Notes under the pieces: generated by a model
What the model saw: only the letters and a program-made list of their open reading frames with translations
What the model was told of the DNA's origin: nothing
Database searches by the model: none
NCBI GenBank assembly: GCA_050174915.1
Contig: JBFXJL010000001.1
Span: forward strand, 539,346 to 603,345
Direction of reading: 5' to 3'
Length of the DNA: 64,000 bases
Source of the DNA: Elusimicrobiales bacterium
Lineage (GTDB): Bacteria > Elusimicrobiota > Elusimicrobia > Elusimicrobiales > UBA9959
Shown: positions 7,950-60,200 of the stretch, one piece after another
Layout of the letters: every line of letters begins with the position of its first letter
How positions within the stretch are numbered: the stretch's first letter is position 1
Program-made: the position numbers and the translations under genes

Positions 7950-7990
7950 TTTTCTTCCCCTAAAGGTTACGGAACTCCGGCGAGCCGCCG

Positions 7991-9457: not shown

Positions 9458-9479
9458 TCTCATTTTTTCTGCGCTGCTT

Positions 9480-10463: not shown

Positions 10464-10607
10464 TGTTTCCTCCTATACAGAATATGATGTCTAGATTTTA
10501 AACAATATCGGCCGAAGATTCAAGGAAACTACCGGGGCAACCCCCTTGGAGTCCTGGCCCGTCCAAGCCACCTTACCGCGGCGCCCCGCTTTTTATATAA
10601 TCCCCTT

Positions 10608-18437: not shown

Positions 18438-18504
18438 GCCTTTATTATATTAATTTAAAGACAACGGCTCTCGAAAAAGACGAAAGCCGAAATTTAAAAC
18501 CCCT

Positions 18505-18537
18505 ATAAACACGAAGCCCCAGACTTGCGTCCGGGGC
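18505..18537 (-). terminator. intrinsic terminator downstream of tRNA-CAT
   Basis: The minus strand reads GCCCCGGAC GCAA GTCTGGGGC (9-bp stem including one G-U pair, GNRA loop) followed by TTCGTGTTTAT. Confidence 0.55.
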
Positions 18538-18578
18538 ACGGTCCTGATATTTCTAGTTCCAGGTTCGAATCTCTTAAA

Positions 18579-18655
18579 TGGTTGCGGGGGTTGGATTTGA
18601 ACCAACGACCTCAAGGTTATGGGCCTTGCGAGCTACCAGGCTGCTCTACCCCGCA
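18579..18655 (-). tRNA. tRNA with anticodon CAT (elongator Met or Ile2-type), CCA encoded
   Basis: Hand-folded cloverleaf, 77 nt: TGCGGGG TA GAGC AGCCTGGTA GCTC G CAAGG CCCATAA CCTTG AGGTC GTTGG TTCAAAT CCAAC CCCCGCA ACCA. All four stems are perfectly paired. It is not initiator-like: positions 1-72 are paired and the anticodon stem has only two G-C pairs. The anticodon loop has C where U33 is normally found. Confidence 0.85.
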
Positions 18656-18733
18656 GTATTATTATACCACAAGGTTCAAGCGGTTGCAACATTTATCGTC
18701 GGGAATAATTACATTCTAAGACGGTGACATGTA

Positions 18734-18785
18734 GTGATCACCTGAAAAATGATCGACTCAAAGTGATGATCGGATTTGTGATCGG
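18734..18785. repeat. cluster of GTGATC(G/A)-type octamers (left flank of the Fic cassette)
   Basis: GTGATCA (18734), TGATCGA (18750), GTGATGATCGG (18763) and GTGATCGG (18778). TGATCGGATTTGTGATCGG here matches TGATCGGATTGGTGATCGC at 20851-20869. Confidence 0.75.
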
Positions 18786-18874
18786 TTTGGGCGGAAACCC
18801 GAGAATTGATGCCTAGTGCTGGCTGGTGATTACTAGCCGCCCTTCAACTGGTCGCAATTACAGTTGGAACACCA

Positions 18875-19738
18875 TCACTCGCCGCGGCGGTAGGTCAAGA
18901 TCATTCCTGCCGAATCTTTCAGCAGGAGGTGCTTGGAGCTGACCGCCACCAAGTTGTATACTATCCGTGCCGCGGAGGAGTCCCGCCCCCCTGCGCTCAC
19001 ACAATCCAGTTCCAGCTTCGCCTCGTCCTCATCCAGCCTCCAGTTCAAGCAGGCAAGAGCGGCCATGTTTACTGATTTAGCTTCGCCTCCGGATTTCAGA
19101 CTAAAACCCGCCTCTGCGCCCGGCATACTGTCCACGGAATGCAGCCAGGTGCCCACAAGGTCGGATTCTTTCACGTTGTATCCGTGAATATATTCTTCGC
19201 CGGAATTGAATTTTACTATTCCCGCTACGGCAATAACTGCCAGAATAACGATCCAAACCTGCCCTGACGAGCCCGCTACCGGCATTTCCAACTGCCTATG
19301 AAAGGCCCACCCGAACGCTCCAAGAAGCATCGAGCCTAATACAAGTGCGGTTAGCACTACCCCCACAAAACTTCCAGCCTGCCCCATAGCAGCCGCTTCG
19401 AACACAAAGAACATTATAAGACTGGGCAATGCAATCAGGATACGCCAAAGAAACGACCATAAAATGCCCGGCAAGGCCATCCCATATTCTTTTAACGCTA
19501 CTTTCTTCGCAGAATACACCAGCGCAGCCATCAGCAGACAGAAGCCGCTGTAGCCCAACAAATTTTTCCCTGCTATCTTTTGCAGATCCGGGACAATTTC
19601 CACAATTGCATAGAACAAGCCATAGGGCAACATTGCCCGCCATAACAATGCCCAGCCAATCTTCAGGTTCTGTCTGCAAAGCAAAGACAGGGGTTTTGTT
19701 AGGCTAATATGCGGTGGATTGATAAAATCAAACCTCAT
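18875..19738 (-). CDS. hypothetical polytopic membrane protein with a soluble C-terminal domain
   Basis: 287 aa. About 5 hydrophobic segments are followed by a soluble tail (NVKESDLVGTWLH...). It overlaps the upstream Fic gene by 11 nt, indicating an operon. G+C is lower than the surroundings. Confidence 0.6.
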   Translation of the reverse strand: MRFDFINPPHISLTKPLSLLCRQNLKIGWALLWRAMLPYGLFYAIVEIVPDLQKIAGKNLLGYSGFCLLMAALVYSAKKVALKEYGMALPGILWSFLWRILIALPSLIMFFVFEAAAMGQAGSFVGVVLTALVLGSMLLGAFGWAFHRQLEMPVAGSSGQVWIVILAVIAVAGIVKFNSGEEYIHGYNVKESDLVGTWLHSVDSMPGAEAGFSLKSGGEAKSVNMAALACLNWRLDEDEAKLELDCVSAGGRDSSAARIVYNLVAVSSKHLLLKDSAGMILTYRRGE

Positions 19739-20729
19739 ACTTCCCGGTCTTATGACCCCCGGAACGTTTTACAAACCCGGCGCCCAGCAAAGGCTTCAGA
19801 ATAAAATGCGCACCGGGCTTTGTTACTTTCAACACGGACATTATTTCCTGTATGCCGCGAGGGGCTTCTTTCAGGAGACCTAATAGACGCTCCTGGTTCT
19901 TTGTTAATGAAACGGATTTGTTCCTGGTGAGGGTGCGGATAGAATCTATGCGCTTCCAAGTGCGTTCAAGGGCTTCCAGCACAGTCTCGGAGGAGTACTC
20001 TACCCAGCCGGAAACATCCCCGCCCTGCGTCTGGACTCGGTTCAAGGCATGATAATAGGCCTGTCTGTCCTCCAAGAAGACTTCGTCCACGGCGAAAATG
20101 TGGTTGGTGTCGAAATGTTTGCGATAAAGTTCCCAAGTTGCCAAGGCCCGGCCCACGCGGCCATTGCCGTCGCCAAAGGGATGGATATACTCGAACTGGT
20201 AATGCAGGATGGCAGAACTTACCAGCGCGGGCCAGTCTTTACCCGGACCATTAAGCCAGTCGCATAATTCTCCGGTCAAATACGGCACTGAGGCCGGCGG
20301 CGGCGGGATATGCCCCCCCACAAAGACCTTATAATCCCGGAAATCGCCCACGGGGCCGCGGTCCAGCGCGTTCTGGCGGCCTATTATCGAATGCAGTTTA
20401 AGTACTTGGGGGACCTTTATAGCGGCAATAGCCGAGTTCTTGCCGATAAAGCGCAAAACCTCGAAATAGTTAAGTATTTCCTGCACCGCGCGCGGTTTGG
20501 CGCCGGGCACTGTGCCGCCTGCGGCGAGGGTCTTGATCTCCGGCAGGGTAAGGGGATTGCCCTCTATGGCGGTAGAGCCGTGAGTCTGCCTGGCCAGCGC
20601 TTCGCGCTGCATGTCCGGCAACCAGCTTACGCCTATGGCGGCGCTCTGTATCTTAGCCTTCAGTTCGGCGGCCTGCTCGATAGTCTTGAGAAGATGGTGC
20701 GTCGGGCTGAATTTTGGATTGAATGGCAT
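19728..20729 (-). CDS. fic: Fic-family protein (AMPylase-type) with an N-terminal inhibitory motif and a C-terminal winged-helix-like tail
   Basis: Canonical Fic motif IHPFGDGNGRVGRA. The N-terminal HGSTAIEGNPLT fits the (S/T)xxxE(G/N) auto-inhibitory helix. Confidence 0.9.
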   Translation of the reverse strand: MPFNPKFSPTHHLLKTIEQAAELKAKIQSAAIGVSWLPDMQREALARQTHGSTAIEGNPLTLPEIKTLAAGGTVPGAKPRAVQEILNYFEVLRFIGKNSAIAAIKVPQVLKLHSIIGRQNALDRGPVGDFRDYKVFVGGHIPPPPASVPYLTGELCDWLNGPGKDWPALVSSAILHYQFEYIHPFGDGNGRVGRALATWELYRKHFDTNHIFAVDEVFLEDRQAYYHALNRVQTQGGDVSGWVEYSSETVLEALERTWKRIDSIRTLTRNKSVSLTKNQERLLGLLKEAPRGIQEIMSVLKVTKPGAHFILKPLLGAGFVKRSGGHKTGKYEV

Positions 20730-35762: not shown

Positions 35763-37052
35763 TTAAAGCACTTTGTAAGGGTTGTCGGTGATGCCCAGCA
35801 GGTAGAGTCCGGCCTTTATATTCTTCTCCACCGAGTTCTTGATGATGGCCGCACCCGGGTAGAAGCCGCGGCCTTCGAGCTCGAAGGTGAAGGCGAAGGC
35901 GCCGGTGGCGGCGTAGGCCCAGTCGGCGCTGTCGCCGGTGGCCACGTACATGTCGCTGGACTTCTGCGAATAGTAGCCGGTCAGTTTGGCCATCGCGTCG
36001 CCGGCCTTGATGAAGACGTTGCGGTCTCGCTCGTCGGGCACGTCCGCCTCGTTGCCCCCCCAGGGGTACAGGATCAGGCTGCCGTAGGTGTGGTAGCTGA
36101 TATGCGTCCTGATGTTGCGCCGGCTTTCCATGAAGCGCTTGATATGCTGGCTCTCCGGCTCGGAGAAAGCCTTGGGGCCGCAGTAGGTGTCGGCGCCGGG
36201 ATAGGTGGAGGCCCCGGACTCGCACCACCAGGAGTCGAAATTGCGGTTCAGGTCCACGCCGCGGGAACCGTTGGCGTTCTTGGCCATGTTCTTGCGGTAG
36301 TACTGGTAGTCGCCGTTCTTGATGTCGTACTCGGCGCCGTCGGGGTTGCCCATCGGCAGCACGTAGATGTCCAGCGAGGAAATGTATTTCTTAATCTCGG
36401 CGTCGCTGCGGTGCTCGAGGAGCCACGCGGCGAAGAGCAGCGGCACTTCGTTGGCCAGGTGCTCGCGGGCGTGGATGTTGCCCAGGAAGAAGGCGCCCGG
36501 TTTGGAGCTGGGGGTCTCGCCCTTGGCGTTGGAGTTGACGCGCAGGCACCAGAGGTCGCGGCCCTCCACCGTTTTGCCGATGGAGAACAGCGAGGCGATG
36601 TCGGAATTCGCGGCGGCCAGGCTCCGCAGCCGGTCGGTGGTCTCCTGGTAGTTGTGGTATATCTCGTCCTGGGACGGGAAATCCTTGGCGAAAGAAGTGA
36701 AGTAGGCGGCGAGCGGGGTTTTGCCGAGCACGGTGACGGACTTGGAGGCGAGCAGGCCCTCCAGCTCGGGGCCGGCTATGCCGGACACGCGGTCCCGCTC
36801 CACTTCCACGATATCCAAGCCGGCTTCCAGCAGGGCGGTGCGCTCGCGCTTATCGGAAGTCTTTATAGTCACCCAGTAGCGGCCCTCGGCCTGCTGCACG
36901 AAAGCGGCTTTGGCTTCTGGGACGGAGGCGGACGCGGGCGGGGTGGTTATTTCGCGCAGCAGCTGCTCGTAGGAAACGTTGGCGTTATCGCCGGCGAGCG
37001 CGGTGACGGCGCTGACGGCCAAAAGGACAAAGGTGAAAAGCGTGTTCCGCAT
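35763..37052 (-). CDS. M14-family zinc carboxypeptidase, exported
   Basis: ORF 35763..37148. The start is moved to ATG 37052 (MRNTLFTFVLLAVSAVTALAG), which has GGAGG 8 nt upstream. Zn ligand blocks GNIHAREHLANE and ISYHTYGSLILYPWG, plus MGNPDGAEY. Confidence 0.85.
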   Translation of the reverse strand: MRNTLFTFVLLAVSAVTALAGDNANVSYEQLLREITTPPASASVPEAKAAFVQQAEGRYWVTIKTSDKRERTALLEAGLDIVEVERDRVSGIAGPELEGLLASKSVTVLGKTPLAAYFTSFAKDFPSQDEIYHNYQETTDRLRSLAAANSDIASLFSIGKTVEGRDLWCLRVNSNAKGETPSSKPGAFFLGNIHAREHLANEVPLLFAAWLLEHRSDAEIKKYISSLDIYVLPMGNPDGAEYDIKNGDYQYYRKNMAKNANGSRGVDLNRNFDSWWCESGASTYPGADTYCGPKAFSEPESQHIKRFMESRRNIRTHISYHTYGSLILYPWGGNEADVPDERDRNVFIKAGDAMAKLTGYYSQKSSDMYVATGDSADWAYAATGAFAFTFELEGRGFYPGAAIIKNSVEKNIKAGLYLLGITDNPYKVL

Positions 37053-37172
37053 GTTAAAAGCCTCCGCTGCGCTGTTGACTATAATCAATGTATTAATTAT
37101 AGGGCCTAAAAAGCAAATCACGCAAGACCAAAAGGCCCAAATACACATGGGTCCTAGGGCCCATGACGAATG

Positions 37173-37832
37173 TCAATCCAGTCTTATCAGGCCCCTCAGG
37201 CCCAACAATAGATACCACAGGCCGGCCAGCAGCAGGGTAAGCCGGCCTATTTCATTGGCACGGCGCCCTATCCAGGGGGTGCCCAGCAGCACAGGGGAGA
37301 TGAACAGGGAGGTGGCCAAGAAGAAACCGCCGAAATAAGAAAAGCCCTTCGCTATATCCGCCAGTTCCAGCAGGCGGATAAAGCCGGCGGCGAAAGGAGG
37401 GCAGATATTAAGGCCGGTCAGGAAGCCCAGGGCCAGCGGCAAGCGCTTGAAGTACGGGGTCAGGTCCCGCCGGAGCAGGCAGGGAGCGGCTTCCCCCCGC
37501 AACCGTGCGGCGGCGAGGTAAACCATCAGCAGGCCGCAAGCGGCCATGCAAAGCGGCAGCGCCCAAACCGGCAGGGCGTAGCGGCCGGCCTGGCCGGCCA
37601 GCGAGGCCAGCAGGGCGAACAGCATGTAGGCCGCAAACCTGCCGGTCAGGAATTGCAGAAAAATACCGAAGTTTAATTTCCAGGCGCTCCTGCCTTCGGC
37701 CAGCAGGTACGGCGCCAGCAGGGGCAGGCAGGAGGCCAGGCAATAGAAGCCAGTGGACAGGCCCAGCAGGAAGCCTTCCGAGAGGAGGGCCGGCACTCTT
37801 AGAGGGTAACTGCCCTGCTGCAGCGCTTGCAC
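37173..37832 (-). CDS. polytopic membrane protein, DsbD_2/CcdA-like (putative thiol-disulfide/electron transfer)
   Basis: 219 aa, about 6 TM segments. Membrane-embedded Cys/Pro motifs GFYCLASCLPLLAPYL and GLNICPPFAAGF. Family assigned by resemblance only. The annotated start overlaps the upstream zinc-ribbon gene by 34 nt, so the true start is uncertain. Confidence 0.4.
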   Translation of the reverse strand: MQALQQGSYPLRVPALLSEGFLLGLSTGFYCLASCLPLLAPYLLAEGRSAWKLNFGIFLQFLTGRFAAYMLFALLASLAGQAGRYALPVWALPLCMAACGLLMVYLAAARLRGEAAPCLLRRDLTPYFKRLPLALGFLTGLNICPPFAAGFIRLLELADIAKGFSYFGGFFLATSLFISPVLLGTPWIGRRANEIGRLTLLLAGLWYLLLGLRGLIRLD

Positions 37833-37993
37833 CAGCCGGCGGCCTTGCCGGAATTATTCTTCCGGCTGAGGGTCACCGAGTCCTTGCAGCCGGGGCATTT
37901 TACGTCCAGGCCCGACAGGTCCAGCTTGACGTAATCCTTCTCGAAGATCTCCTTGCTGGTATAGCGCGGCTCCAGCCATTTTCCGTCTTTCAT
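37799..37993 (-). CDS. small zinc-ribbon protein (64 aa)
   Basis: ORF 37799..38050. The start is moved to ATG 37993, which has a perfect AGGAGG 6 nt upstream. Translation: MKDGKWLEPRYTSKEIFEKDYVKLDLSGLDVKCPGCKDS...WCKRCSRAVTL (CPGC...CKRC). Confidence 0.6.
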   Translation of the reverse strand: MKDGKWLEPRYTSKEIFEKDYVKLDLSGLDVKCPGCKDSVTLSRKNNSGKAAGWCKRCSRAVTL

Positions 37994-38001
37994 TTTTCCT
38001 C

Positions 38002-39156
38002 CTAACCCCCGATAATTTTTACCAAGTCGCGCAGCGCGGCAGGGGCCCACAACGACGAGAATGCTGCCCCCAGCGTGAGCGCTGAGAAAACGTAGAAATA
38101 TTTTACCGAGTACAACCCGCCGAGAAAGCCGCCGGCCGCCGGCAGGTCCAGGCCGAAGACGGTGTAGCGCAGCCCGCCTTTAGGGCAGGCGTCCAGGCAT
38201 TGCCCGCAGAGGTTACAGTAGGCCAGGATCTCGGCCTTGCCGCCGAGGGCGCAGCTGATGGCCGTCATCGGGCAGGCGGCCACACAGCTCCGGCAGCCGC
38301 TGCACTGGTCGGCCGCGGCCGTCAGGCGGAAAGGATTCAGTCTGCCCCAGAAAGCCTGCCAGGCGGCGAAAGGACAGAGAAAGGAACAGAAGAAGCGCTT
38401 GCGGGTCAGCAGCGGCGCTATTACCAGCGCGGCCAGGGCCGCCAGCATCAGCGCGTACTGGGCGGTCCGGTGCCACCCCTGCCCGTCGAGAAAGGAGCCC
38501 GTGAGCTTGAACGGGCAGAGCCACAGGCAATACACCGGCAGCGCGTAGCCAAGCGACAGCAGCAGCAGGAAGATCAGCAGCGCCGCCGGCAGGTCGCGCG
38601 CTTTCAGCGCCCAGCGGTCGATCTTAAGCAGCGGTTTTTTGGGCAGGGCGCTCAGCCCGTCGTCGATGCCGCCGTAGAAGCAGGCCCATGAGCACCAGGC
38701 CCGGCCGATGGCCAGCGTGACGAACAGCCAGAGCGCGCCCAGGCTCAGCGGCCCCCACAAGGCCCAGCCGCCGGCGGCGAGCGCGAGGTACTGCTGGCGC
38801 AGGTAATTCAGAAAATACGGGGCCATCGCTATATGGCAGAAAGGCGTGTCCGTAAAACATGACGGAGCCAGCGACTTGGAGACCAGGCCGAGTTTGAAAT
38901 GCAGCAGGAAAGCCAGTGCGGAGACCGAGAAAAACAGCCTGCGCCAGGAGGAGACGCGGCCGGTGTAGGCTATGGCGAAGGCCGTCCCCCCGGCGAACAG
39001 CGCCCAGGCCAGCGCGTAGAGCCTGCTGATCTCCCTGCCCGCTATCGCCGAGGAGAAGAACAGAACCGGCACGAAAACCAGAAGCGCAAAGACCGCGGCG
39101 GCGGGCGCCGTGTTCCCGTTTTCGGCCGCGGGCTTCATCGGCAAGGGAAGTTTCAC
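38002..39156 (-). CDS. NapH/MauN/NosH-type membrane polyferredoxin (2 CX3CP motifs plus 2 [4Fe-4S] ferredoxin motifs)
   Basis: Polytopic. CX3CP motifs: CLWLCPF and CSFLCPF. Ferredoxin motifs: CSGCRSCVAACP and CNLCGQCLDACP. The start is either GTG 39156 (GTGA overlap with the upstream stop) or ATG 39138. Confidence 0.75.
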   Translation of the reverse strand: MKLPLPMKPAAENGNTAPAAAVFALLVFVPVLFFSSAIAGREISRLYALAWALFAGGTAFAIAYTGRVSSWRRLFFSVSALAFLLHFKLGLVSKSLAPSCFTDTPFCHIAMAPYFLNYLRQQYLALAAGGWALWGPLSLGALWLFVTLAIGRAWCSWACFYGGIDDGLSALPKKPLLKIDRWALKARDLPAALLIFLLLLSLGYALPVYCLWLCPFKLTGSFLDGQGWHRTAQYALMLAALAALVIAPLLTRKRFFCSFLCPFAAWQAFWGRLNPFRLTAAADQCSGCRSCVAACPMTAISCALGGKAEILAYCNLCGQCLDACPKGGLRYTVFGLDLPAAGGFLGGLYSVKYFYVFSALTLGAAFSSLWAPAALRDLVKIIGG

Positions 39157-40619
39157 CGTTGTCTCCCCTCCTCGAACGAGTCTACCGTAAAGGAATACAA
39201 GTCGGTACCGGCCTGCCGCCAGCAGTCGCGCGGCAACCCCGCTTTCTGGGCGCAGAGCTCGCCCATAAAATCATCTTTGGCCGGGATCTGGTCCCAGACC
39301 TGAGGCAGGAAAAGGCCGCTGCGGCCGTCCTTGCGCAAAAAGACTCCGGAGCCGTGCTTTATGGCGTCAGGCTGCACCGGCTCGAGGGGCGACAGCACGG
39401 AGATCTCCAGGCGTACCGCGGCTAATTCGTCCTCGCGCAGCGGCTTGAAGCGGCCGTCCTCGAACGCGGCGCCGAGGGCGCCGTAGCGCACGGCGTCGGC
39501 CAGCGTAAGTGCGGGCTGGACAGTGCCCACGCAGCCGCGCAGCGCGCCGCTCCGCAGCAGGGTCACGAAAGCCGCCCCCGGCAGGTTCAGCCGGGGATCG
39601 GCGTGCAGGCCGGCCGGGCTTTCCCCCCCGGAGAAATGCCGCTCCAGCGCCAGGCGGGCCTCGCTCAGGAGGGCCGCCTTTTGCTCTTTTGAGAGAGCAA
39701 GACTTGCGGGCCGGCCGGTTTTCAGGAAAAGGCCGGAAAGATAACCGACCACGCGGTCCGGGGAGCCCGCCGGGTTCTGGTCGTAGGAATTGGAAAGCGC
39801 CAGCGACCGGAAAGACTTAGCCCCCAGCAGGCGCGCGGCCGTGAGACCGGCTTCTATGGCTGCCTCGCCGCAGGCGCAGGTGTCCAGCCCGGGTATCTTT
39901 TTGCGCGCTATGAACTGCGCCGCGTCGCGCAGCAGGGCCGGGTCCATGGCCTCCAGGGCCAGGCGCAGCGCCCCGTCGGAAGCGGCGGCGTCGGCCCTGG
40001 ACGGGTAATGGGAAAGGTCGGCCGAGATCACGAGCAGCGCCTTTTTGCCTTTCAGCGCGCCGGCCAGGGCTGCGCCTATCTCCGCCCGCTCGGCCGGGCC
40101 GGCGGCGTTAAGGGTGGCGGCCAGCAGCTTGAAAGGTTTCTTCAGCCGGCGCTGCAGGAAAGGCAGTTGCACCTCCACGGCATGCTCGGCCGCGTGGGCC
40201 GAAGGCTTGTCCTCGAAGAGAGGGCTGGCTTTTACCAGCGCGGCCGCCAGGGCGCGATCGGGCTCCACCCTGCCCAGGGGCGTGACATAGGCGTCGGAGG
40301 CCAGCAGGGCAGCGCCGCGCACCCCCTCGGTATGCCCGGTGGCCAGGATGACAACGGTGTCGTAGCGGTCGGCGGTATATTTATAGGCGAGACCCGCCAG
40401 GCGGCCGGAGTATTCGTATCCGGCATGCGGCGCCAGCACCGCCGCGATCTCCCCCTCCGGCCCTGGGATCTTCCCGGCGGACAGGTACCCGTCCACGGCC
40501 GCGGCGAGAGCCGCGGGGTCCGACGGGTAGAAGCGGCCCGCTACGGCCGCTTCGCGCGCCCCCGCGGCTGCGCAGGAGGAGAGGCACAGCGCGGCGGAGA
40601 GTAACAATTCCAGACGCAT
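39153..40619 (-). CDS. fusion of Memo-like (AmmeMemoRadiSam system protein B) and AMMECR1 (protein A) domains, with an N-terminal lipoprotein-like signal
   Basis: N-terminus MRLELLLSAALCLSSCAAAG (lipobox-like LSSC). Memo blocks: GRFYPSDP, LAPHAGYEYSG, ADLSHY. C-terminal AMMECR1 block: AFVTLLRSGALRGCVGTVQP...AFEDGRFKPL...LEISVLSPLEPV. Confidence 0.8.
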   Translation of the reverse strand: MRLELLLSAALCLSSCAAAGAREAAVAGRFYPSDPAALAAAVDGYLSAGKIPGPEGEIAAVLAPHAGYEYSGRLAGLAYKYTADRYDTVVILATGHTEGVRGAALLASDAYVTPLGRVEPDRALAAALVKASPLFEDKPSAHAAEHAVEVQLPFLQRRLKKPFKLLAATLNAAGPAERAEIGAALAGALKGKKALLVISADLSHYPSRADAAASDGALRLALEAMDPALLRDAAQFIARKKIPGLDTCACGEAAIEAGLTAARLLGAKSFRSLALSNSYDQNPAGSPDRVVGYLSGLFLKTGRPASLALSKEQKAALLSEARLALERHFSGGESPAGLHADPRLNLPGAAFVTLLRSGALRGCVGTVQPALTLADAVRYGALGAAFEDGRFKPLREDELAAVRLEISVLSPLEPVQPDAIKHGSGVFLRKDGRSGLFLPQVWDQIPAKDDFMGELCAQKAGLPRDCWRQAGTDLYSFTVDSFEEGRQR

Positions 40620-40620
40620 A

Positions 40621-40929
40621 TTACTTACCGGGGGCGGCGGGTCCGGCGTAAACCAGCGTCTTTATACGGCCGCCGTAGTTGACCCTGACCTTGCAGCGGC
40701 CGACGGCGCCTTCCGGCAGGAAGCACTCGTAGGGGCAGAGACGGCACTGCAGGCCGTTGCACGCGGGCACGGCAAAGCGGCCCGGCCGCACGTTCGGGTG
40801 CTCCGGCGGGTAGACGAGGGAGAAGGTGGATGGAGGCGGGTAAAAAGCCGCAAGGGCGGAGGCGCCCAGCGCCGCGCAGGCGGTTAATACCGCCCACAGC
40901 GCCGCCGCCTTCCGCCCTTGCAGTTTCAT
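40621..40929 (-). CDS. small exported Cys-rich protein resembling only the N-terminal motif of the AmmeMemoRadiSam radical-SAM enzyme
   Basis: ORF 40621..41046. The start is moved to ATG 40929 (MKLQGRKAAALWAVLTACAALGASALAAF, signal-like; TAATG overlap with the LOG stop). LQCRLCPYECFLPEGAVGRCKVRVNYGGRIKTLVYAG matches the V-C-x-L-C-P-x-x-C-x-[ILV]-x-x-G-x-x-G-x-C-x-V-R-x-N-x-x-G-x-[LI]-x-[ST]-L-V-Y-G pattern that precedes the CxxxCxxC core in PflX-type enzymes. The protein then stops. Confidence 0.6.
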   Translation of the reverse strand: MKLQGRKAAALWAVLTACAALGASALAAFYPPPSTFSLVYPPEHPNVRPGRFAVPACNGLQCRLCPYECFLPEGAVGRCKVRVNYGGRIKTLVYAGPAAPGK

Positions 40930-41789
40930 TATTTCCCGTTGGCCAGCGGGTACTTCTTGTAGAAGTCCTCTATATGCTCGAGGATCTCGGCGCCGGTCTC
41001 GGCGTACCTGAACAGCTTGAGGTCTTCCTTGGCGATATAGCCCCACTTGGCCATGTTAGGGAAGTTGATCACGTCCTGCCAGTAGTCCTTGCCGACCAGG
41101 ATGATGGGCAGGCGGGTCTTCTTGCCGGTCTGCACCAGCGTCAGCACCTCGAAGAGTTCGTCCATGGTGCCGAAGCCGCCGGGGAAAGCCACCAGCGCGC
41201 GGGCCCGCATGACGAAGTGCATCTTGCGGATGGCGAAGTAGTGAAAGCGGAAGCAGAATTCCGGGGAGATGTAGGGGTTGGGGCCCTGCTCCATGTCGAG
41301 CGTGATGTTGAGGCCGATGTTCTTGGCGCCGGCGTCGTGGGCTCCGCGGTTGGCGGCTTCCATGATGCCGGGGCCGCCGCCGGTGACCACCACGAGCTTG
41401 CGGTCCTTGAACACGTCCGCCTGCGAGACCAGGCGGCCGAAGTCGCGGGCCACGTCGTAATACTTGACGGACTTCTTGAGCCCTTCCACCGAAGCCAGCT
41501 TGCTCTTGAGCAAGGGATTCTTAGGGTCCTTGCGGAGCATGGCGCGCACTTGGGCCGACCGCTCCTCGGACTGCGGCTTATCCCAGATGCGGGCGCTGCC
41601 GAAGACCACGACCGTGGACTTTACGCCGTGCTCGCTCAGCGTCATCTCCGGCTTCTGCAGCTCCAGTTGCAGGCGCACCGGGCGCATCGCGTCGCTGCTG
41701 AGAAATTCGGGGTCCAGGTAGGCTTTCCGGTAGGCTTTGGCCCTGCGAAGCGTCATAACTTCCTTGCTGATCTTGGGTTTCTTGTTCAC
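40929..41789 (-). CDS. LOG-family (TIGR00730, lysine-decarboxylase-like) nucleotide phosphoribohydrolase
   Basis: 286 aa. Motifs VVTGGGPGIMEAANRGA and FPGGFGTMDELFEVLTLVQTGK. Confidence 0.85.
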   Translation of the reverse strand: MNKKPKISKEVMTLRRAKAYRKAYLDPEFLSSDAMRPVRLQLELQKPEMTLSEHGVKSTVVVFGSARIWDKPQSEERSAQVRAMLRKDPKNPLLKSKLASVEGLKKSVKYYDVARDFGRLVSQADVFKDRKLVVVTGGGPGIMEAANRGAHDAGAKNIGLNITLDMEQGPNPYISPEFCFRFHYFAIRKMHFVMRARALVAFPGGFGTMDELFEVLTLVQTGKKTRLPIILVGKDYWQDVINFPNMAKWGYIAKEDLKLFRYAETGAEILEHIEDFYKKYPLANGK

Positions 41790-52519: not shown

Positions 52520-55500
52520 CTACCTCACCACCGCGAACTTCTTTACCACCTTCTCCGACCGGCCGGTGGTAAGGCCCTTGATCCGCAGCACGTAGAGATA
52601 CACGCCCGAGGCCGCGCCGTCGCGCACCAAGTCCCAGGTCAGGCGCCTGCCTCCCAGCTGCGCCAGGTCCGGCGCGTGGGCGTCGAGCGTTCTGAGCAGC
52701 CGCCCGGAGACGTCGAAGATCTGCGCCTCGGCCTCGTAAGGCTCCGGCGGCTGCGGAAAATGGAAATGCACTTCAGTGCTGGCCGGGTTGGGATAGGCGA
52801 AGACGCCGGCCTTGTTGAGCAGGTCCCATTTGGGAGCGAAGACCAGGCGCTCGCCGGGGCCCAGCTTCACCGTTTCCATGCGGCTGAACTCCGAACCGTT
52901 GAAGACACGCAGCGAGTAGGTGCCGGGCAGCAGGTTCGGGATTTCAAAGGCGCCGGCGGCGTCGGTATAGGCCGCGCCGATGCGGCGGCCGCGGCTGTAG
53001 ACTTCCACGAAGGGTTCGGCGCCGGAAGAGACGCGGGCCTCGCGCGTGGTATAGCGCGCGGTAGCGGGCCGCGCGGCGGAGGCGGCCGGCAGGTAGTTCG
53101 ACGGGATCACGCCGAGAATGCTGGCCAGCTGGTAGGAAACGCTAAGGCTGAAATTCACGTTGGACGAACCGTTAGGCACATTATCCTTGGAAACCGAGCT
53201 CTCGATGTCCTGCGCGGTCCAGACCGCCCGCAGCGTGAGGTAGAGCGAGTCCACGCCGGGGATGGAGTAGTCGCCGAAAGCGTCCGTGTAATCGCTGCCC
53301 TCCAGCGCGCCCGCCGGCGAGCGGGCCTCCACCAGCACGCCGGTGAGCGGCTGGGCGGCGGCGTCGGTGACGCGGCCGGTGAGCGCGCCGCTGCCCGGGG
53401 CCCCGCTGAGCGCCGAGGCCTCGCTGGAGGCCGCGGACCAGTTCTGCGCGTCGTCGGCGGTCCAGAGCGTGAAATAATAGACGGCGGCCGGGTCCAGGCC
53501 GGTCAGCGTCCAGTAGCGCGTGGTACCGGCGCTGACCGAGGCGGTGGCGATGGCCACCTGGGCCGTATCCGTGGAGACGGGGGCGCCCGCGTAGGTGGAG
53601 TAGGCTATCTTGTACGAGCCCTCCGGCAGGTAGCCGCCGGCCGCGTTGTCGCCGGCGGAAGGCCAAGAGAGGTTGACGGCGCCGCTGAAAGCCCCGGGAA
53701 CGGCGGCCAGGCCGGCCGTGGGCGGCGGCGGCGTGGCGTCGGAGTAGGTGAAGGTGGAACCGGACGCGTAGAAAGCGCCGGTGTTTACCGGCACGGCCAG
53801 GTCGGAGGCGCGCACGGTGACGTAATAGGAAGCGCCGTGAACCAGCGAATCGCGCAGGTAAGGCTGGAAGGTCCAGGTCCAGTACGGCGTGGTGCCGGCC
53901 TGCAGCGGCTCGGGCGCGGCGGCCCACTCGGAAACGGAGTTCTTCCACCATTTCCCGTCGGAGAGGCGCTTCAGCGCGACGTCCACCGAGGCTATGCCGG
54001 AATGCGGGTCGGCGGCGGTACCGCTGACCGAGGCCACGGAGGGCGAGGTCGAGCCGTCGGCGGGGTACAGCACCGCCGCGTCCGGGGCGCCCGCGTCGAA
54101 AGTGAAGGTATGAGTGGCCAGCAACTGCGAGTAGTCCCCGGCCGAGTCGGAGGACCGGGCCACCACCTGGTACTGGCGGCCGCCGATCAGCGGCAGGTTC
54201 TGAAAAATAATGGTGTAGCTGCTGGGGAAATCCTGGGCATCCTGCCAGGCCTGGGAGCCGGAGAGGAAATCGCCGCCGTTGTAATAGAGCAGGCTGGCCA
54301 GGTCGCGGATGGACACTTCGGTGCCCTTTACCTGGTGGGCGTTGGTCTCGGCCGTGCCGCCCGCCACGCGCGTGAACGTAGACAGGAACAGGGCGGTGGG
54401 CGTGGAAATGGTCACTACGGGGCCGCTGACGTTCTTGGCTATGCCGAAGGCGTCGGTGAGCGTGCGGGTGGAGCCGGCCACGTCGACCGCCCGGAAACTG
54501 AAGTAGTTGGAGGTAGCGTTGGCCAGCGCGTTAAAGCTGTAAGTCAGAGTGGGGCGATACCAGGTGGCGCCGGCGGTGAGCCCGGAGATATCCGTCCACG
54601 GGATAACCGCGCCGTCGGCGAAGTTCTTGGAGGCGCTGACGCTGAACTGCACCCGGGCCAGGCCGGAGAGCGGATCCCCGAAATCCAGGCCGGCCACGTC
54701 CCCGGGGTAATCGGTCAGCCAGGCCTCCGGGGCCGCGTAGCCCGATTCCACCGAAGGGGGCGTGGTGTCCTTGCGCACCATGAACGCCTCCAGGACCTCT
54801 CCGTAGTTGCCGGAGCGGTCATAGGCCCGGATGGAGACGTAGTTGGAAGCCCCGTCGAGCATAATGTCCCAGGCCTGCTGAGTAAGCGGCCAGTCAGCCG
54901 AATAGGATTCCTGGTCTATGCCCGTAAGAACGGGGGTCCAGCCGCCGACGAAACTGGCCGGGTCGGCTTCCCTGGTGGAGACGCGCACTTCTATCCGGTC
55001 CAGGCCGGCCGCGCCCACGTCGGTGAAATTCACGTCGCAGAGGAAGGTGTTGGTGGACTGCCAGCCGGGGATATTGCCCTGCTGGTCGTCGATAGTGGGG
55101 CTGCTGATGTCCAGCGCGGGATCGAAGCCGGTGCGCACCGCGGGCAGCTCTGCGTAGCGCGATAATTTTTCGGGTTCCTCCAGGCGGACCCGGGCGTAAT
55201 AGGTGGTGCTCTGCTGCAGCCCGGTCAGTACCGCCGAAAGAACGCCGGCCGCGCTGAGTGAGAAAGAGTGGGAATAGTCGGAATGAGAAGAGTAGACCAG
55301 GCTGTAATCGGAGCCGGGCGGGTTGCCGTTGGCGGTCCAGTTGACGGTGGCCGAAGACACCCAGACATTAGTCCAGGCGGCGGTGCCGGGAACTGCGGCG
55401 TAGGTAAACGTGGAGCCGGCCTGCGAGAACTGGGTGGCGACGCCGGCCCAGTTGCGGGCCCGGGCGCGGTAGTAGTACTGCGTGAGCGGCTGCAGGCCGG

Positions 55501-57130
55501 AGAAGGAGAAGGACGGGCTGGCGGACCACCCGGAAGTTTCGGCGCCGGTGAAGCCGCTGTTAAGCGCCACCTCTGCCTGGTACTCGGCGCCCAGGGCCGC
55601 GGCGGAATAGACCGAATCCGACGGGGTGGACCCGGGAGAGCCGCCAAAGAGGTAGAGCCGCGGGCCGGCCAGCGCCACGGCCGGGAACTGGCGCTCCGCC
55701 GGCATGGGGGGCCCGGCTTCCCAAGGCGCGATTCCGGCTACGGGCACGCTGCTGTGGAACACGTGCCGCTGCGGGCCGTAACCGTTGTTGCCGCCGAATA
55801 CATACAGGCGGTTGCCGGCGGCGGCCGCCGCATGGCCGTAACGGGGAGACGGCAGCGGGGCGTAAGCCGTCCAGTCCTCTGTATCCGGGTCGTAGGTCCA
55901 GGCCTCGGCCCTTACTGCGGCACCGTCGCTGCCGCCGGCCAGCAGCAGGCGGCCTTCCAGGGCAGTCAGCGAGTGGCCGTAACGGGGCGCGGGCAGGCCT
56001 TCCCCCGCCCCCTGCCAGGCCGACAGGGCGCCGTCGGGACCGATCTCCGCGTAGGCCAGGCCGCTCAGCACGCCTACCCCGGACTTATAACCGCCGCTGA
56101 CATAAATGCGGTTCTCCGCCAGGGTCGCGGCATGTAAATAAACCGGCTCCCCCAGCCCGGCCTCCGGCAGCCAGACGCCCAGGACGCCAGAAGAAGAAAT
56201 GTCAGCCGACCAGACCTCGTTGCGGGCGGCGCCGGACTCCGAGCCGCCCAGGATATACAGCCGTCCGCGCGCCGCCACGGCCTGGTGGCCGTAAAGGCCG
56301 GCAGGCATATACCCGGCCGTGCTCCAGCCTCCCAGCGAACCGTCGCCGTTAATTTCGGCCCGGAAAACAGCGCTGGAAAAATAGATACCGTCGAAACCGC
56401 CGCTCACGTAGACGTGCGAACCGTAAACCACCGAGGCCGAGCCGGAGCGGGGAGCCGGCAGGGCGCCCGGGAGACCCGCGGTTTCCCACCCTCCGAGCAG
56501 CGGCGGCGGGTTACCCGAGTAGGCGAAAGCCAGCCCCAGCGTGCCGTGGCCGGCGTCGGCCAGCGTGAACTCGCCCGTGGAAGGAACCACGGCCATGGTC
56601 ACGGCCGTGGAGGAGGCGGGAGCGGAGTAATCCCCCTCCATGTAATTGGCGATCAGGAAATTGTAGTAGCTGGTATTGGGCGCCAGGCCTTCCACCGGGT
56701 AACCGTGTTCGTCGGTGGAATAAGTGACCATATACGGGTCGGCCTCGGCCCAGGTGGAAACGAAGAAGTCGTAGGTGGTCCCGGGCGGGTTCGCTGGGTA
56801 CGGCCCGCCCTGTTCCGTCCAGACCAGCGTGTAGCTGCTGCCCCCCTGCGCCGAGTAGTCCAGCACCGCCGCCGAGGAAACCAGCCGCGAATAGAAGCCG
56901 GACTCCAGCGCTATATCGTTGCTCATATCCTGAAATATCTGAGTGCCGTGGGCCGCGCCGGCCAGCCCCCCCTGCAGCACCGTGCCGTCGGCGTGCGACT
57001 GTCCCGCGCTGGCAGACGAGTAGTCCGCCGCGTCACCGAGCACGGTAATGTCTCCCGCTGTTTTTTGGGCCGCCGCCTGTACGGTAAACAGGCATGCCAA
57101 CATGGCGGCCGCGCTGATGAGCGCTTTCAT
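52520..57130 (-). CDS. giant exported protein: Kelch-type beta-propeller, multiple FN3/Ig-like domains, carboxypeptidase-regulatory-like domains and a T9SS-type (FlgD-Ig-like) C-terminal domain
   Basis: 1536 aa. Signal peptide MKALISAAAMLACLFTVQAAAQ. Kelch units: GHQAVAARGRLYILGG, RYGHSLTALEGRLLLAGG, RYGHAAAAAGNRLYVFGG. FN3-like units: LQPLTQYYYRARARN, LQQSTTYYARV. C-terminus: VFAYPNPASTEVHFHF...IFDVSGRLLRTL...SGVYLYVLRIKG...KKFAVVR. Confidence 0.75.
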   Translation of the reverse strand: MKALISAAAMLACLFTVQAAAQKTAGDITVLGDAADYSSASAGQSHADGTVLQGGLAGAAHGTQIFQDMSNDIALESGFYSRLVSSAAVLDYSAQGGSSYTLVWTEQGGPYPANPPGTTYDFFVSTWAEADPYMVTYSTDEHGYPVEGLAPNTSYYNFLIANYMEGDYSAPASSTAVTMAVVPSTGEFTLADAGHGTLGLAFAYSGNPPPLLGGWETAGLPGALPAPRSGSASVVYGSHVYVSGGFDGIYFSSAVFRAEINGDGSLGGWSTAGYMPAGLYGHQAVAARGRLYILGGSESGAARNEVWSADISSSGVLGVWLPEAGLGEPVYLHAATLAENRIYVSGGYKSGVGVLSGLAYAEIGPDGALSAWQGAGEGLPAPRYGHSLTALEGRLLLAGGSDGAAVRAEAWTYDPDTEDWTAYAPLPSPRYGHAAAAAGNRLYVFGGNNGYGPQRHVFHSSVPVAGIAPWEAGPPMPAERQFPAVALAGPRLYLFGGSPGSTPSDSVYSAAALGAEYQAEVALNSGFTGAETSGWSASPSFSFSGLQPLTQYYYRARARNWAGVATQFSQAGSTFTYAAVPGTAAWTNVWVSSATVNWTANGNPPGSDYSLVYSSHSDYSHSFSLSAAGVLSAVLTGLQQSTTYYARVRLEEPEKLSRYAELPAVRTGFDPALDISSPTIDDQQGNIPGWQSTNTFLCDVNFTDVGAAGLDRIEVRVSTREADPASFVGGWTPVLTGIDQESYSADWPLTQQAWDIMLDGASNYVSIRAYDRSGNYGEVLEAFMVRKDTTPPSVESGYAAPEAWLTDYPGDVAGLDFGDPLSGLARVQFSVSASKNFADGAVIPWTDISGLTAGATWYRPTLTYSFNALANATSNYFSFRAVDVAGSTRTLTDAFGIAKNVSGPVVTISTPTALFLSTFTRVAGGTAETNAHQVKGTEVSIRDLASLLYYNGGDFLSGSQAWQDAQDFPSSYTIIFQNLPLIGGRQYQVVARSSDSAGDYSQLLATHTFTFDAGAPDAAVLYPADGSTSPSVASVSGTAADPHSGIASVDVALKRLSDGKWWKNSVSEWAAAPEPLQAGTTPYWTWTFQPYLRDSLVHGASYYVTVRASDLAVPVNTGAFYASGSTFTYSDATPPPPTAGLAAVPGAFSGAVNLSWPSAGDNAAGGYLPEGSYKIAYSTYAGAPVSTDTAQVAIATASVSAGTTRYWTLTGLDPAAVYYFTLWTADDAQNWSAASSEASALSGAPGSGALTGRVTDAAAQPLTGVLVEARSPAGALEGSDYTDAFGDYSIPGVDSLYLTLRAVWTAQDIESSVSKDNVPNGSSNVNFSLSVSYQLASILGVIPSNYLPAASAARPATARYTTREARVSSGAEPFVEVYSRGRRIGAAYTDAAGAFEIPNLLPGTYSLRVFNGSEFSRMETVKLGPGERLVFAPKWDLLNKAGVFAYPNPASTEVHFHFPQPPEPYEAEAQIFDVSGRLLRTLDAHAPDLAQLGGRRLTWDLVRDGAASGVYLYVLRIKGLTTGRSEKVVKKFAVVR

Positions 57131-57204: not shown

Positions 57205-60200
57205 TTACTTCAATAGCAGGGTCGCCTTCCCGCCGACGCAGTTGGTCAGGAACAACCCGACGCTGGTGCCGCTGGAGGGAAGCCCGACGCCTCCAACCGC
57301 ACCGACCGTGGCTGAAGTGACAGCATGCTGCCCAAATGCGCCGTTGATGCAGTTGGCAACAACTACTCCGGCCACCGCTATTTTGGCCGTGCTAGCCACT
57401 GTACCGCTGCCAATCGCCACACCGATAACGGTGGAAGTAGAAGCCACCCCTATGGTGCCGAACTGATTGTTCCCGGAAGCGATCACCACGTCGCCATCCA
57501 CAAAAGGTGTTGAAGCGGTCAGCCAGATCACTATCGGCGTATTCCCTATCTGACTGCCGTCGCCGAGCCCCAGGTCTCCGCTAACCTGCAGCCTGGCGGG
57601 GTTGGCCGGGTTAACGCCGTCGTTCGTAATGAAGACGTTGCCTTCGAAACGGCCGGCATAACCGCTGCCGGCCACGCCTTTTATAGCGGTCGCGGCGCTG
57701 TTAGACCAGCCATAAACGCCGGCGTCCGTGCTACTGGGTGAACTGGTCAGGCCCGCGATCGCCCCCCCGGCCAAGTCCTTCACATGCAGCTTAAAGCCGG
57801 GGGTGTTAGTGCCTATCCCGACCTTGTTGGCATTACTGACGTAAAGCGCGGGGTCGGCGTAGGCTGTACCGGTGGAAACCCAGAAGCCGCCGGCGGCTTT
57901 AAACATCACCTGGTCCCCCACCGAATTCTCCACCACCACGCCCTTGCTGTCGGCCCAGGTGAACGTGCCGTTAGCCGTGGAACTGGACATGTAACCGGCC
58001 GCGAAGGAATAGTTGCCTTTGGCCGTGTTGTTGCTGCCGCCCGGCACGGCGGAATCTCCGCCGGTCGCCATGTTGGAGGAGCCGCCGGCTACCACCGAAT
58101 TGTCCCCGGTTGCATGGTTGCCGCCGCCGGCGCCCACGAACGAGGATCCGCCCAGGGCCTTGTTCCCCCAGCCGGCCACCACGCCCGCGTAATATTCAGA
58201 AGCCGCACCCGCAGTGTTCATCCAGCCGCCGGCCACCACGGAGTAGGCCGTGCTGGCGGTATTGCCGTAACCGCTTCCCACGAAGGCGAACATTTCTTCG
58301 GCGAGGTTGTCCTGGCCGGAGAAGATCGCCGAGTGGCTCCCGTACACGGAGTTGCCCTTACCGCCTCCGATAGTACCGAAGTAGGAGGCCGCGTAGTTGC
58401 CCTCGCCGCCGGAGATGACGGCCGAAGTGCCGGCCGCTATGTTGTAGCGGCCGCCGGCTACCACGGTGTTGGAACCGAGCACGGTGTTGTAGGCGCCGCC
58501 GCTGAGGGTTGAAAAATCGCCCAGCGCCACCTGGCCGGACACCTCGCGGGCCGTCTGCAGGTCCACCGCCCCCATGCCGCGCACCCCCGCGCCCGAGATG
58601 CCGTTGCCCACACCGACCGTGACTATGGAGCCGGCCGTCGATACCTGTATTCCGGTAGTAGCGAAGTCATATGTGTAAAGCGCGGGATCAACACTGATGG
58701 TAAGGTTGCCGGACATATTGTCGCCGGTCTTCGACACTTTAGAGGAAAGCGCGTCCACCTGGGCGTAAAGCACGCCGGAAGCCGTCATGCTGGCGCGTAT
58801 CACGCCGCCGGCGTCGCGCCATATCTGCGCCACCGTGGCAGTGGAGCGTATGTCCAGCATGGCCTGCGGGGCTCCGGTAGCGATACCGACGCCGCCGTCG
58901 CTCCGTATCACCATGCGCGTCTGCGCCTCCGCGGTGCCGTCGGCAGCTGTCATGAACTCCAGCCTGCCGGGCATATCGAGCGCGGGATGAACGCTGGCCA
59001 CGCCGTCCACGCGGCCGACTATCGCCGCCGCGGTCGGGAATGGGTCTCCGGGCGAGGCGTTATAGCCGCCGAAGGCCAGCACGCCCAGGTTGTCTCCGGA
59101 CTGGACCACGGCCTGCGAATTGGCCGTGCCGCGCGCCTTGAGCAAGGCGAGATAGGAGCCTTCAGGAGTATCGCTGTTATGCTCCACCACAATGCCCTCG
59201 TCCTTGGTGGCCGCGGTAAGGTGCAGCGGGGCCTGAGGCCGCTGCGTGTTGATACCAACCCAGCCGCCGGTGGTCACCACCAGGTGGTAAGCGGAGGCCG
59301 AAGTTCCCACGCGCACGGTGTAGGAGGAAACGGCCACATCGGCCTGCACCACGCTCAGCGCCGCGTCGGGCGCGGGCGTGCCCACGCCCAGGCGGTTCTC
59401 CACCACAAGGCTGTTGGCCGGAGGATGGGCTAGGTTGTAGGTGGCCCCCACGCTCATGCTGCCCTTCAACTGCAGCTGCGGGGACAGGAGATCGCTCTGT
59501 ATGCCGGCGCCGGGGCCAATACCGATGTGCTCGCCGCCGTAACCCACATGCATGTATTTCGTGGCCCCGCTATAGAAGACCATACCGCCAGCCCCGTTGG
59601 ACAACAGCCCGTCGGTAACGGGGTTGCCGCCGGCATTGGTGGAGATCAGCACCCTGCCGGAAATGTCCAGCGCCTCGGCCGGCGAAGCGATTCCGATGCC
59701 CACACGCCCGGCATCGGTGACGCGCAGGCGCTCAGTGCCCGCGGTGGCAAAAGCAAGCTGGTCCTGGCCAGGGCTATAAAAGCCCGTATTTTCATCCCCG
59801 CTGAAGGAAAGGGAAGGCACCGCGGCCGTTCCCTGCGGCAGCAGCAGCGCGCCGGTCATGGTGTCGCCGGTCTTCTGCACCGCGCTGGCAGAGGTAACGC
59901 CGGTCAGGCCGGAGCCGTCTCCATAGTAGCGCGCTGCGGAACTGAAGCCGACTACATAGACATTAGTGGAGATCCTGATGCCGGCGCCTAAGGCCGGGTC
60001 GGTCTCCGGGGAAATGGTGCGGGAGGCGTCCGACAGGACCAGGCCCGCGCTGGTGCCGCGCGTCGTTATCGAGCCGTTATAGACGTCGAACTTAGAGGCG
60101 GGACCTGTGGAACCCATGGAGATCTTCCCGTCCCCGCGCACGGAGAGAACCGTGTTCGCTCCGTTGTTGGCCGTAATGTTCAAGGCATACTTAGTTGGGC

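Follow-up and report, generated by a model that had tools for sequence, protein, structure and literature searches.

How does a locus of the AmmeMemoRadiSam system come to lack its radical S-adenosylmethionine (radical-SAM) enzyme, and what may the genes that remain at such a locus still do? The question is raised by a string of five genes (37173-40929, minus strand) in a 64,000-nucleotide stretch of the genome of an Elusimicrobiales bacterium (GCA_050174915.1, contig JBFXJL010000001.1, positions 539,346 to 603,345), hereafter the window, in which a small open reading frame (ORF) is followed by a Memo-AMMECR1 fusion, a NapH-like membrane polyferredoxin, a zinc-ribbon-like protein and a DsbD-like membrane protein. 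An earlier note on this DNA described the five genes, their spacings and their cysteine motifs, with all of which the ORF listing, direct reading of the junctions and scans with hidden Markov models (HMMs) agree, and it proposed that an iron-sulphur (Fe-S) membrane module had replaced a radical-SAM enzyme of which no remnant could be hidden at the locus. Our results lead to a different account. We find that the small ORF is the retained N-terminus of that enzyme, and we consider it likely that the locus derives, by reduction, from an envelope-located AmmeMemoRadiSam system.

The small reading frame and the radical-SAM enzyme

The small ORF (40621-40929, minus strand, as are all genes of this locus) encodes 102 aa, is annotated by NCBI as hypothetical protein AB7V08_02635 and has the same length in four independent assemblies. 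It is what remains of the AmmeMemoRadiSam radical-SAM enzyme, namely the first ~100 residues, which comprise a membrane anchor and a module with five cysteines. The protein matches TIGR04337, the family of that enzyme, at positions 12-46 of 349 (E = 2.7e-4, 19.9 bits; cutoff 220), and shares 57-80% identity with residues 1 to ~100 of the 409-411-aa radical-SAM enzymes encoded at the syntenic position in related contigs, homology ending just ahead of the DPIEKKP and CNLxCxxCQNWE core motifs. A custom N-terminal HMM gives it 175 bits and a core HMM gives it no score, and tblastn with the radical-SAM enzyme recovers just the N-terminal part at the locus. The absence of the enzyme therefore stands in part: there is no full gene or core in the window, where the core HMM finds no match and where, among ORFs of at least 100 aa, CxxxCxxC occurs in two spurious GC-rich frames only. 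The claim that no pseudogene remnant remained does not stand, the 102-aa ORF being itself that remnant. A tblastn match to the radical-SAM enzyme at 55096-55356 (plus strand) is weak and lies antisense within a 1536-aa gene, and was therefore rejected as spurious.

A hydropathy scan of the small protein gives a single transmembrane (TM) segment with a basic N-flank (QGRK), and AlphaFold2 (AF2; 73 sequences) places a helix at residues 3-29 (40843-40923) with predicted local distance difference test (pLDDT) values of 80-97. This segment is predicted to be a membrane anchor or an uncleaved signal, and the N-terminus of the full enzyme shares the arrangement, one ~22-residue hydrophobic helix behind a basic N-flank. 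The twin-arginine translocation (Tat) motif [ST]-R-R-x-F-L-K is absent from the window's small protein, which reads QGRKAAALW and has no RR; the segment homologous to the anchor bears a Tat-like TRRELL in L154 and TRREFIKK in L033 (L numbers designate loci from other genomes and metagenomes). For the window protein, the most plausible reading of this N-terminal segment is a membrane anchor or a Tat signal that has degenerated. Behind it lies the cysteine-rich module C57-x4-C62-x2-C65-x3-C69-x9-C79, followed by a GGRIKTLV hairpin (40651-40761). All five cysteines are invariant in 73 of 73 aligned truncated and full-length proteins, and the module may hold an Fe-S or zinc cofactor. A search of PDB sequences found no solved relative of the radical-SAM enzyme.

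Two deletions and their recurrence

The intact form of the locus can be read from sister genomes, where the ancestral-type order is a LOG-family gene, the radical-SAM gene, the fusion, a gene on the opposite strand that we call memSpeE, and the genes for the NapH-like protein, the 64-aa zinc-ribbon-like protein (zn64) and the DsbD-like protein (DsbD_2). The most useful of these loci is L005 (GCA_028688015.1), whose fusion is 73% identical to that of the window and whose 409-aa radical-SAM enzyme scores 323.7 bits on TIGR04337, above the cutoff of 220. In a blastn comparison the window and L005 are collinear save for two gaps. At the first junction (40617-40635; ...PAAPGK-TAA-T-ATG) ~0.95 kb is absent from the window, with the break at L005 7043/8052; the missing segment (L005 ~7044-8000) holds radical-SAM codons ~100-409 and the intergenic spacer, and a single base (40620), read directly at the junction, separates the stop codon of the 102-aa ORF from the ATG of the fusion. 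At the second junction (39153-39156; GTGA) ~2 kb is absent, with the break at L005 9461/11537; the missing segment (L005 ~9462-11536) holds the opposite-strand 682-aa gene and its divergent intergenic region. That gene is memSpeE (L005:9431-11479, minus strand), encoding a polytopic membrane protein with a spermidine-synthase-like domain; it is present in L001, L003, L005 and L007, an Omnitrophota homologue matches Spermine_synth (E = 9e-24) and MFS_SpdSyn (E = 4e-13), and no homologue was found in the window. Misassembly is ruled out, the junctions being identical in four independent assemblies (an NCBI metagenome-assembled genome, one from Logan and two from JGI): the 102-aa ORF and the radical-SAM junction recur unchanged in L004 (Logan), L087 and L088 (JGI), and in L004 and L087 the fusion is joined straight to the NapH-like gene, the L088 contig ending at the fusion. 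The fusion and the NapH-like gene, whose GTG start overlaps the fusion stop codon (GTGA, 39153-39156), are tightly coupled, which had been taken for an original feature of the locus; the coupling is secondary, because the intervening ~2-kb memSpeE gene has been deleted.

The same reduction is seen at other loci. A search with the 102-aa protein found further relatives of 95-119 aa on long contigs. In L089 (GCA_964417965.1) and L092 the small ORF is accompanied by the fusion and the NapH operon, and memSpeE is missing; in L091 (GCA_038204165.1) and L093 the small ORF leads directly into the NapH operon, the fusion being gone, and L093 also lacks DsbD_2. The latter pair form one clade (L091:8001-9430 and L093:3645-5232), in which a module of 98 or 119 aa directly precedes the NapH-like gene and, in L091, overlaps it by 4 nt. 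Further truncated metagenome loci are L095, L097-L099, L106 and L139. In bootstrapped neighbour-joining trees built from 2,187 and 1,322 ungapped columns of flanking proteins, full-length L005 is sister to the window clade (96-100%), and L089/L092 and L091/L093 are placed elsewhere, beside full-length L003. L106 shares 90-92% DNA identity with L005, yet lacks both segments; its radical-SAM junction lies at L005 7051/8000, both of its deletion-junction sequences differ from those of the window, and the NapH promoter region, lost from the window, is still present in it. The module sequence of L139 is L001-like, and this locus appears to be a further independent case. The window clade and L106 represent two independent events at the least, and the number probably rises to as many as five with L089/L092, L091/L093 and L139.

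In every event the truncated gene keeps the first ~93-101 radical-SAM codons, and homology stops 0-8 codons past GGxIKTLV. The presence of memSpeE follows that of the core: it is found in 27 of 27 metagenome loci with a radical-SAM core versus none of six truncated ones, and in full-length L001, L003 and L005 but not in the truncated window, L004, L087, L089, L091, L092 or L093. That the radical-SAM core and memSpeE are always lost together argues for their interdependence. DsbD_2 has been lost independently in L004, by a 515-bp internal deletion equivalent to window 37248-37762, and in L093 (L093:5442-5585); the NapH-like gene and zn64 are always kept in the lineages where this happened.

Could a complete radical-SAM enzyme and memSpeE instead lie elsewhere in the genome and act in trans? 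The 64 kb examined are part of a 764-kb contig, and about 36 of 80 sampled fusion loci have no radical-SAM gene in the retrieved sequence (at most 10 kb per side, several of the contigs being short), such that unlinked arrangements may exist. Against this, the remnant occupies the exact syntenic position, as expected of a local copy that was destroyed and not moved; neither the core nor a memSpeE homologue occurs in the window; and joint loss, seen repeatedly in several clades, is easier to reconcile with loss of a function than with a series of relocations. We consider relocation unlikely.

A second alternative is that the whole system is being lost, with the small ORF and the fusion surviving as remains that have lost their function but have yet to erode. 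The fusion is indeed missing from L091 and L093, and DsbD_2 from L004 and L093, and the dN/dS of the small ORF (0.31-0.71 within the window clade) exceeds that of its neighbours, among which the LOG gene stands at 0.03-0.09, the fusion at 0.17-0.22, the NapH-like gene at 0.16 and zn64 at 0.12 in the same clade. Between L106 and L005 the fusion has outpaced its flanks (dN 0.12 and dS 0.50, versus dN 0.02-0.05 and dS 0.19-0.35 in neighbouring genes), which could reflect faster evolution after partner loss or a recombination event. However, with that pair included the dN/dS of the fusion is still 0.17-0.24 (NapH-like gene, 0.13-0.16; zn64, 0.08-0.12), and the window fusion keeps all 62 columns that are invariant in 120 homologues, including H96, D201, H204, C250 and C363. 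The small ORF shows no frameshift or stop and keeps its five cysteines in at least ten truncated sequences. Its cysteine-rich half has a dN/dS of 0.23-0.47 within the window clade, the N-terminal module a dN/dS of 0.15 between L106 and L005, and the nonsynonymous deficit is significant when two phylogenetically independent contrasts are pooled (binomial p = 0.003; codons 46-95, p = 0.013). Moreover, the breakpoints of five clades fall within ~8 codons of a 410-codon gene, which suggests a constraint on keeping the module. We therefore regard ongoing decay as very unlikely; the small protein is probably functional, to judge from these moderate signals of selection.

Predicted export of the fusion, and the putative membrane redox genes

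The fusion (39153-40619, 488 aa; PF01875, PF01871) carries AmmeMemoRadiSam proteins B and A in that order, with Memo first, as had been proposed: TIGR04336 (Memo) matches residues 22-297 with 207 bits (cutoff 26) and TIGR04335 (AMMECR1) residues 316-482 with 156.5 bits (cutoff 99). Its first 21 residues (40557-40619) form a predicted Sec-type signal peptide, MRLELLLSAALCLSSCAAAGA|RE, a sequence pattern with a charged n-region, a hydrophobic core and AxA right before the conserved RE-xx-AG-x-FYP. In a pattern-based survey of 108 scorable aligned fusion homologues of at least 50% identity, a hydrophobic presequence of 20-30 aa with a basic start is present in 103, and an AxA-RE-like site in 87. 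The fusion looks exported, in agreement with the earlier note, by a different type of signal from the one it had favoured. The lipoprotein reading of LCLSSC was rejected: the cysteine is absent at that position in the four closest homologues (P0002-P0005), in which the AxA-RE site is conserved and two of which have no presequence cysteine at all. Some presequence cysteine occurs in 62 of the 108 homologues, at varying positions. The N-terminus as predicted fits a Sec signal cleaved by signal peptidase I, not a lipobox.

Such signals are widespread. Among 80 representative genomes from many phyla, signal peptides are present on about two-thirds of the Memo-AMMECR1 fusions, and many of these signals are lipobox-like. 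Homologues of memSpeE (680-750 aa; e.g. L011:11390-13645, minus strand) occur in ~24 of the 80 genome loci, solely beside fusions with an exported-type N-terminus and never beside signal-less ones; on this pattern of neighbours and predicted signals, the exported class has a conserved fourth partner in memSpeE. The radical-SAM enzymes encoded next to fusions point the same way, ~19 of 46 having a twin-arginine-type start (KR variants counted) and ~10 more a hydrophobic anchor. Examples of the former are TRREFIKK, DRRSFLQ and NRRDFIKK, the KR variants being found in Bacteroidota; N-termini of this type were noted in L010, L017, L022, L023, L026, L027, L033, L034, L036 and L038, and also in L040, L041, L051, L052, L057, L062, L068, L083 and L154, the last of which (TRRELL) belongs to the same subfamily as the Elusimicrobia enzyme. 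These motifs suggest Tat export of the radical-SAM enzyme. The premise that the system normally consists of three cytoplasmic proteins would thus fail for a large class with signal-bearing fusions and twin-arginine radical-SAM enzymes. Nor is either feature that had seemed new in the window a novelty: relatives of the Memo-first fusion occur in at least 596 representative genomes (596 of 599 stretches scanned), and loci without a nearby radical-SAM gene make up the ~36 of 80 given above. In one genome (L079, OY763407.1) an 801-aa ORF ending at ~11380 apparently joins all three domains, radical-SAM, Memo and AMMECR1, in a single polypeptide, with no signal peptide.

Downstream of the fusion, the 384-aa membrane polyferredoxin (38002-39156; Fer4_5, Fer4_9) scores 63.7 bits on TIGR02163, far from the cutoff of 213, and by its sequence is a member of the NapH/MauN superfamily and not a NapH orthologue. 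It has ~5 TM segments, CX3CP motifs at 210 (CLWLCP) and 257 (CSFLCP), a third motif, CX3C, at 155, and, in its basic C-terminal domain, two CxxCxxCxxxCP [4Fe-4S] motifs, CSGCRSCVAACP at 285 and CNLCGQCLDACP at 314; a search of PDB sequences returned generic ferredoxin matches only. An 8-nt gap containing an AGGAGG ribosome-binding site leads to zn64 (37799-37993), which has CPGC and CKRC motifs and no Pfam or NCBIfam match, is 75-91% identical across Elusimicrobiales loci and always lies 3' of the NapH-like gene. The polytopic DsbD_2 protein (37173-37796) matches PF13386 over residues 21-209 with 51.6 bits (gathering threshold 24.9) and has CLASC in TM1 and CMAAC in TM3; it is 207 aa long from the GTG at 37796, a start inferred from L087 and L005, or 219 aa from the upstream GTG at 37832.

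In L001, L003 and L005 this three-gene operon adjoins an intact radical-SAM gene, and L007 has the three genes beside memSpeE on a contig that keeps just the 3' end of the radical-SAM gene. In a metagenome scan seeded with the NapH-like protein, which yielded 27 loci with full radical-SAM genes, the NapH-like gene was present in 27, DsbD_2 in 25 and zn64 in 16; in another tally of these loci, 22 of the 27 were credited with the complete set of three. Local synteny alone is no proof of a functional link, because a whole ~17-kb block is conserved. More telling are distant loci (L150, L152-L154 and L156; 40-45% NapH identity), in which radical-SAM, memSpeE, NapH-like and DsbD_2 genes are clustered and LOG, M14, zn64 and any detectable Memo-AMMECR1 are absent; the order of the four genes is rearranged in L150, and L154, the sole distant locus with annotated flanks, has unrelated neighbours (an MMPL transporter and ResB/CcsA). 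Among Omnitrophota, DsbD_2 lies immediately upstream of the radical-SAM gene in L011 and L024, with a 4-nt overlap in L024, and a weaker DsbD_2 match (39 bits) lies immediately downstream of the fusion in L042. At 33-36% identity the NapH-like and DsbD_2 pair stands alone. It has the look of an independent module of two genes, attached in some lineages to the radical-SAM system, and the distant clusters and the three Omnitrophota loci indicate that NapH-like and DsbD_2 are probably linked to that system functionally, as the earlier note had supposed. Its proposed comparison of neighbourhoods has a divided outcome: the NapH-like gene does not recur at the sampled loci of other phyla that have no radical-SAM gene nearby, but it is conserved with the system in Elusimicrobiales.

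That the Fe-S operon does not replace the radical-SAM enzyme follows because it also adjoins intact radical-SAM genes. The proposal that the NapH-like, zinc-ribbon and DsbD-like proteins were recruited to supply the missing redox chemistry to the fusion could draw on the present tight coupling of the genes (GTGA overlap, 8-nt gap), on purifying selection on all of them and on the apparent ties of NapH-like and DsbD_2 to the system in other genomes, but it is highly improbable and largely refuted by the co-occurrence of the three genes with intact radical-SAM genes in L001, L003, L005 and most of the 27 full metagenome loci, with further counter-evidence in the origin of the coupling by deletion of the 2-kb gene, in L091 and L093, which keep the operon and the small ORF without the fusion, in the lack of a NapH-like neighbour at loci of other phyla without a nearby radical-SAM gene, and in the distant loci, where the module travels with radical-SAM and memSpeE and not with Memo-AMMECR1.

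A reduced, envelope-located system likely explains the locus best. Its NapH-like/zn64/DsbD_2 operon predates the deletions. One deletion of ~0.95 kb took out the radical-SAM core, from just past the GGxIKTLV hairpin to one base before the fusion ATG, and another of ~2 kb took out memSpeE, leaving the remaining genes as one tightly packed string. The anchored cysteine-rich module and the exported fusion, if their signals are read correctly, would still function beyond the cytoplasmic membrane, with no radical-SAM chemistry involved. A membrane redox module may be formed by NapH-like and DsbD_2, perhaps together with zn64. NapH, NosR/NosH, RdhC, MauN and CcoG serve enzymes outside the membrane, and by analogy the redox module of the intact system would most likely carry reducing equivalents through the membrane to a radical-SAM enzyme on the extracytoplasmic side, the retained N-terminal module being the likeliest place of contact for the redox module. 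In the window, the fusion may work without a radical-SAM enzyme, as the eukaryotic proteins do, and the anchored cysteine-rich module may still work with the NapH-like module. Taken to its furthest extent, this becomes a picture of extracytoplasmic AmmeMemoRadiSam chemistry, possible but doubtful as it stands, in which a Tat-exported or anchored radical-SAM enzyme would be fed by NapH-like and DsbD_2 through its N-terminal cysteine-rich domain, memSpeE would handle a SAM-derived moiety, and in core-less lineages the N-terminal domain would survive as an autonomous, periplasm-facing redox mini-protein working with the NapH-like module.

Several points weigh against this interpretation. A mutational hot spot, or a need for translational coupling to the downstream gene, could be part of the reason why the breakpoints recur; the selection signal in the small ORF is moderate, with few substitutions behind the estimate; and AF2 gives the cysteine-rich part of the small protein pLDDT values of 40-57, which lend an autonomous fold no support. 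Export is read from sequence features alone, the NapH-like protein is predicted to have its Fe-S domain on the cytoplasmic side and is assigned its role as an electron relay by analogy only, and an extracytoplasmic radical-SAM enzyme raises unsolved questions of SAM and Fe-S cluster supply. The searches for radical-SAM and memSpeE genes cover the window, and copies elsewhere in the genome are possible.

The surroundings of the five genes can be described briefly. Directly upstream lies a LOG/TIGR00730-family gene (40929-41789; TIGR00730 99.2 bits, PF03641) whose stop codon shares one base with the ATG of the 102-aa ORF (TAATG); it is syntenic in all Elusimicrobiales loci compared and is probably in the same transcription unit as the 102-aa ORF and the genes that follow. 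An M14 carboxypeptidase gene (35763-37052, minus strand) comes next after DsbD_2. A scan for consensus promoters and terminators gave nothing decisive, with a weak terminator-like hairpin at 37146-37165, just past DsbD_2. Elsewhere in the window, two very large ORFs on the minus strand, 52520-57130 (1536 aa, with a signal-like N-terminus) and 57205-63963 (2252 aa), are both rich in repeated Gly/Ser/Thr/Ala motifs and probably encode surface or adhesin-like proteins. Segments 4001-6000 and 18001-20000 have a lower G+C content (0.51 and 0.53) than the ~0.63-0.69 found elsewhere, and the second of them holds a tRNA gene (18582-18655, minus strand), the sole Rfam match in the window.

Relation to known systems and significance

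The locus is akin to the AmmeMemoRadiSam system in having proteins A and B, both above cutoff and joined in a B-A fusion of a kind that many phyla share, and in that sister genomes have a bona fide TIGR04337 gene where it stands. It differs in having just ~100 N-terminal radical-SAM residues and in the export or anchor signals on its proteins, and its relatives have extra partners, memSpeE in many phyla and NapH-like with DsbD_2 in Elusimicrobiales and some others. NapH and NapGH, MauN, NosH/NosR, RdhC and CcoG offer a parallel for the polyferredoxin, which is likewise polytopic with two CX3CP and two C-terminal [4Fe-4S] motifs and adjoins genes for enzymes predicted to be extracytoplasmic; unlike them, it falls far below the TIGR02163 cutoff, has no nap, nos, mau or rdh genes nearby, and is paired with DsbD_2 and, in Elusimicrobiales, with the 64-aa zinc ribbon. 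The DsbD_2 protein resembles DsbD and CcdA in its PF13386 match, its polytopic form and the cysteines inside its TM segments (CLASC, CMAAC), and its locus has neither a thioredoxin-like partner nor a cytochrome c maturation context. The eukaryotic MEMO1 and AMMECR1 domains operate without a dedicated radical-SAM partner. They are separate cytosolic or nuclear proteins, whereas the window domains are fused behind a predicted signal peptide and the loss of the radical-SAM core in the window lineage is recent and traceable.

The B-A fusion and loci without a nearby radical-SAM gene are common. In the searchable literature the name AmmeMemoRadiSam appears in passing only, and we found there no description of Tat-signal radical-SAM enzymes of the TIGR04337 family. 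The exported class with memSpeE, the association with NapH-like and DsbD_2 and the recurrent, domain-sparing truncation thus appear to be undescribed in that literature, although a study by Burroughs et al. in 2019 (J Biol Chem 294:10211; cited via PMC7159879), which reportedly discussed genomic contexts of the system, may cover some of them.

Memo and AMMECR1 are conserved in organisms ranging from archaea to humans, with links to human disease. L005 and L106 amount to a natural experiment, close genomes with no difference other than the loss of the radical-SAM core and memSpeE. The truncated loci indicate that Memo-AMMECR1 can persist without these two partners, and that the cysteine-rich N-terminal module of the radical-SAM enzyme can be selected on its own. 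An exported class with a Tat-type radical-SAM enzyme and a NapH-like electron module would, if true, challenge the view that radical-SAM chemistry is confined to the cytoplasm, and would give concrete partners to test.

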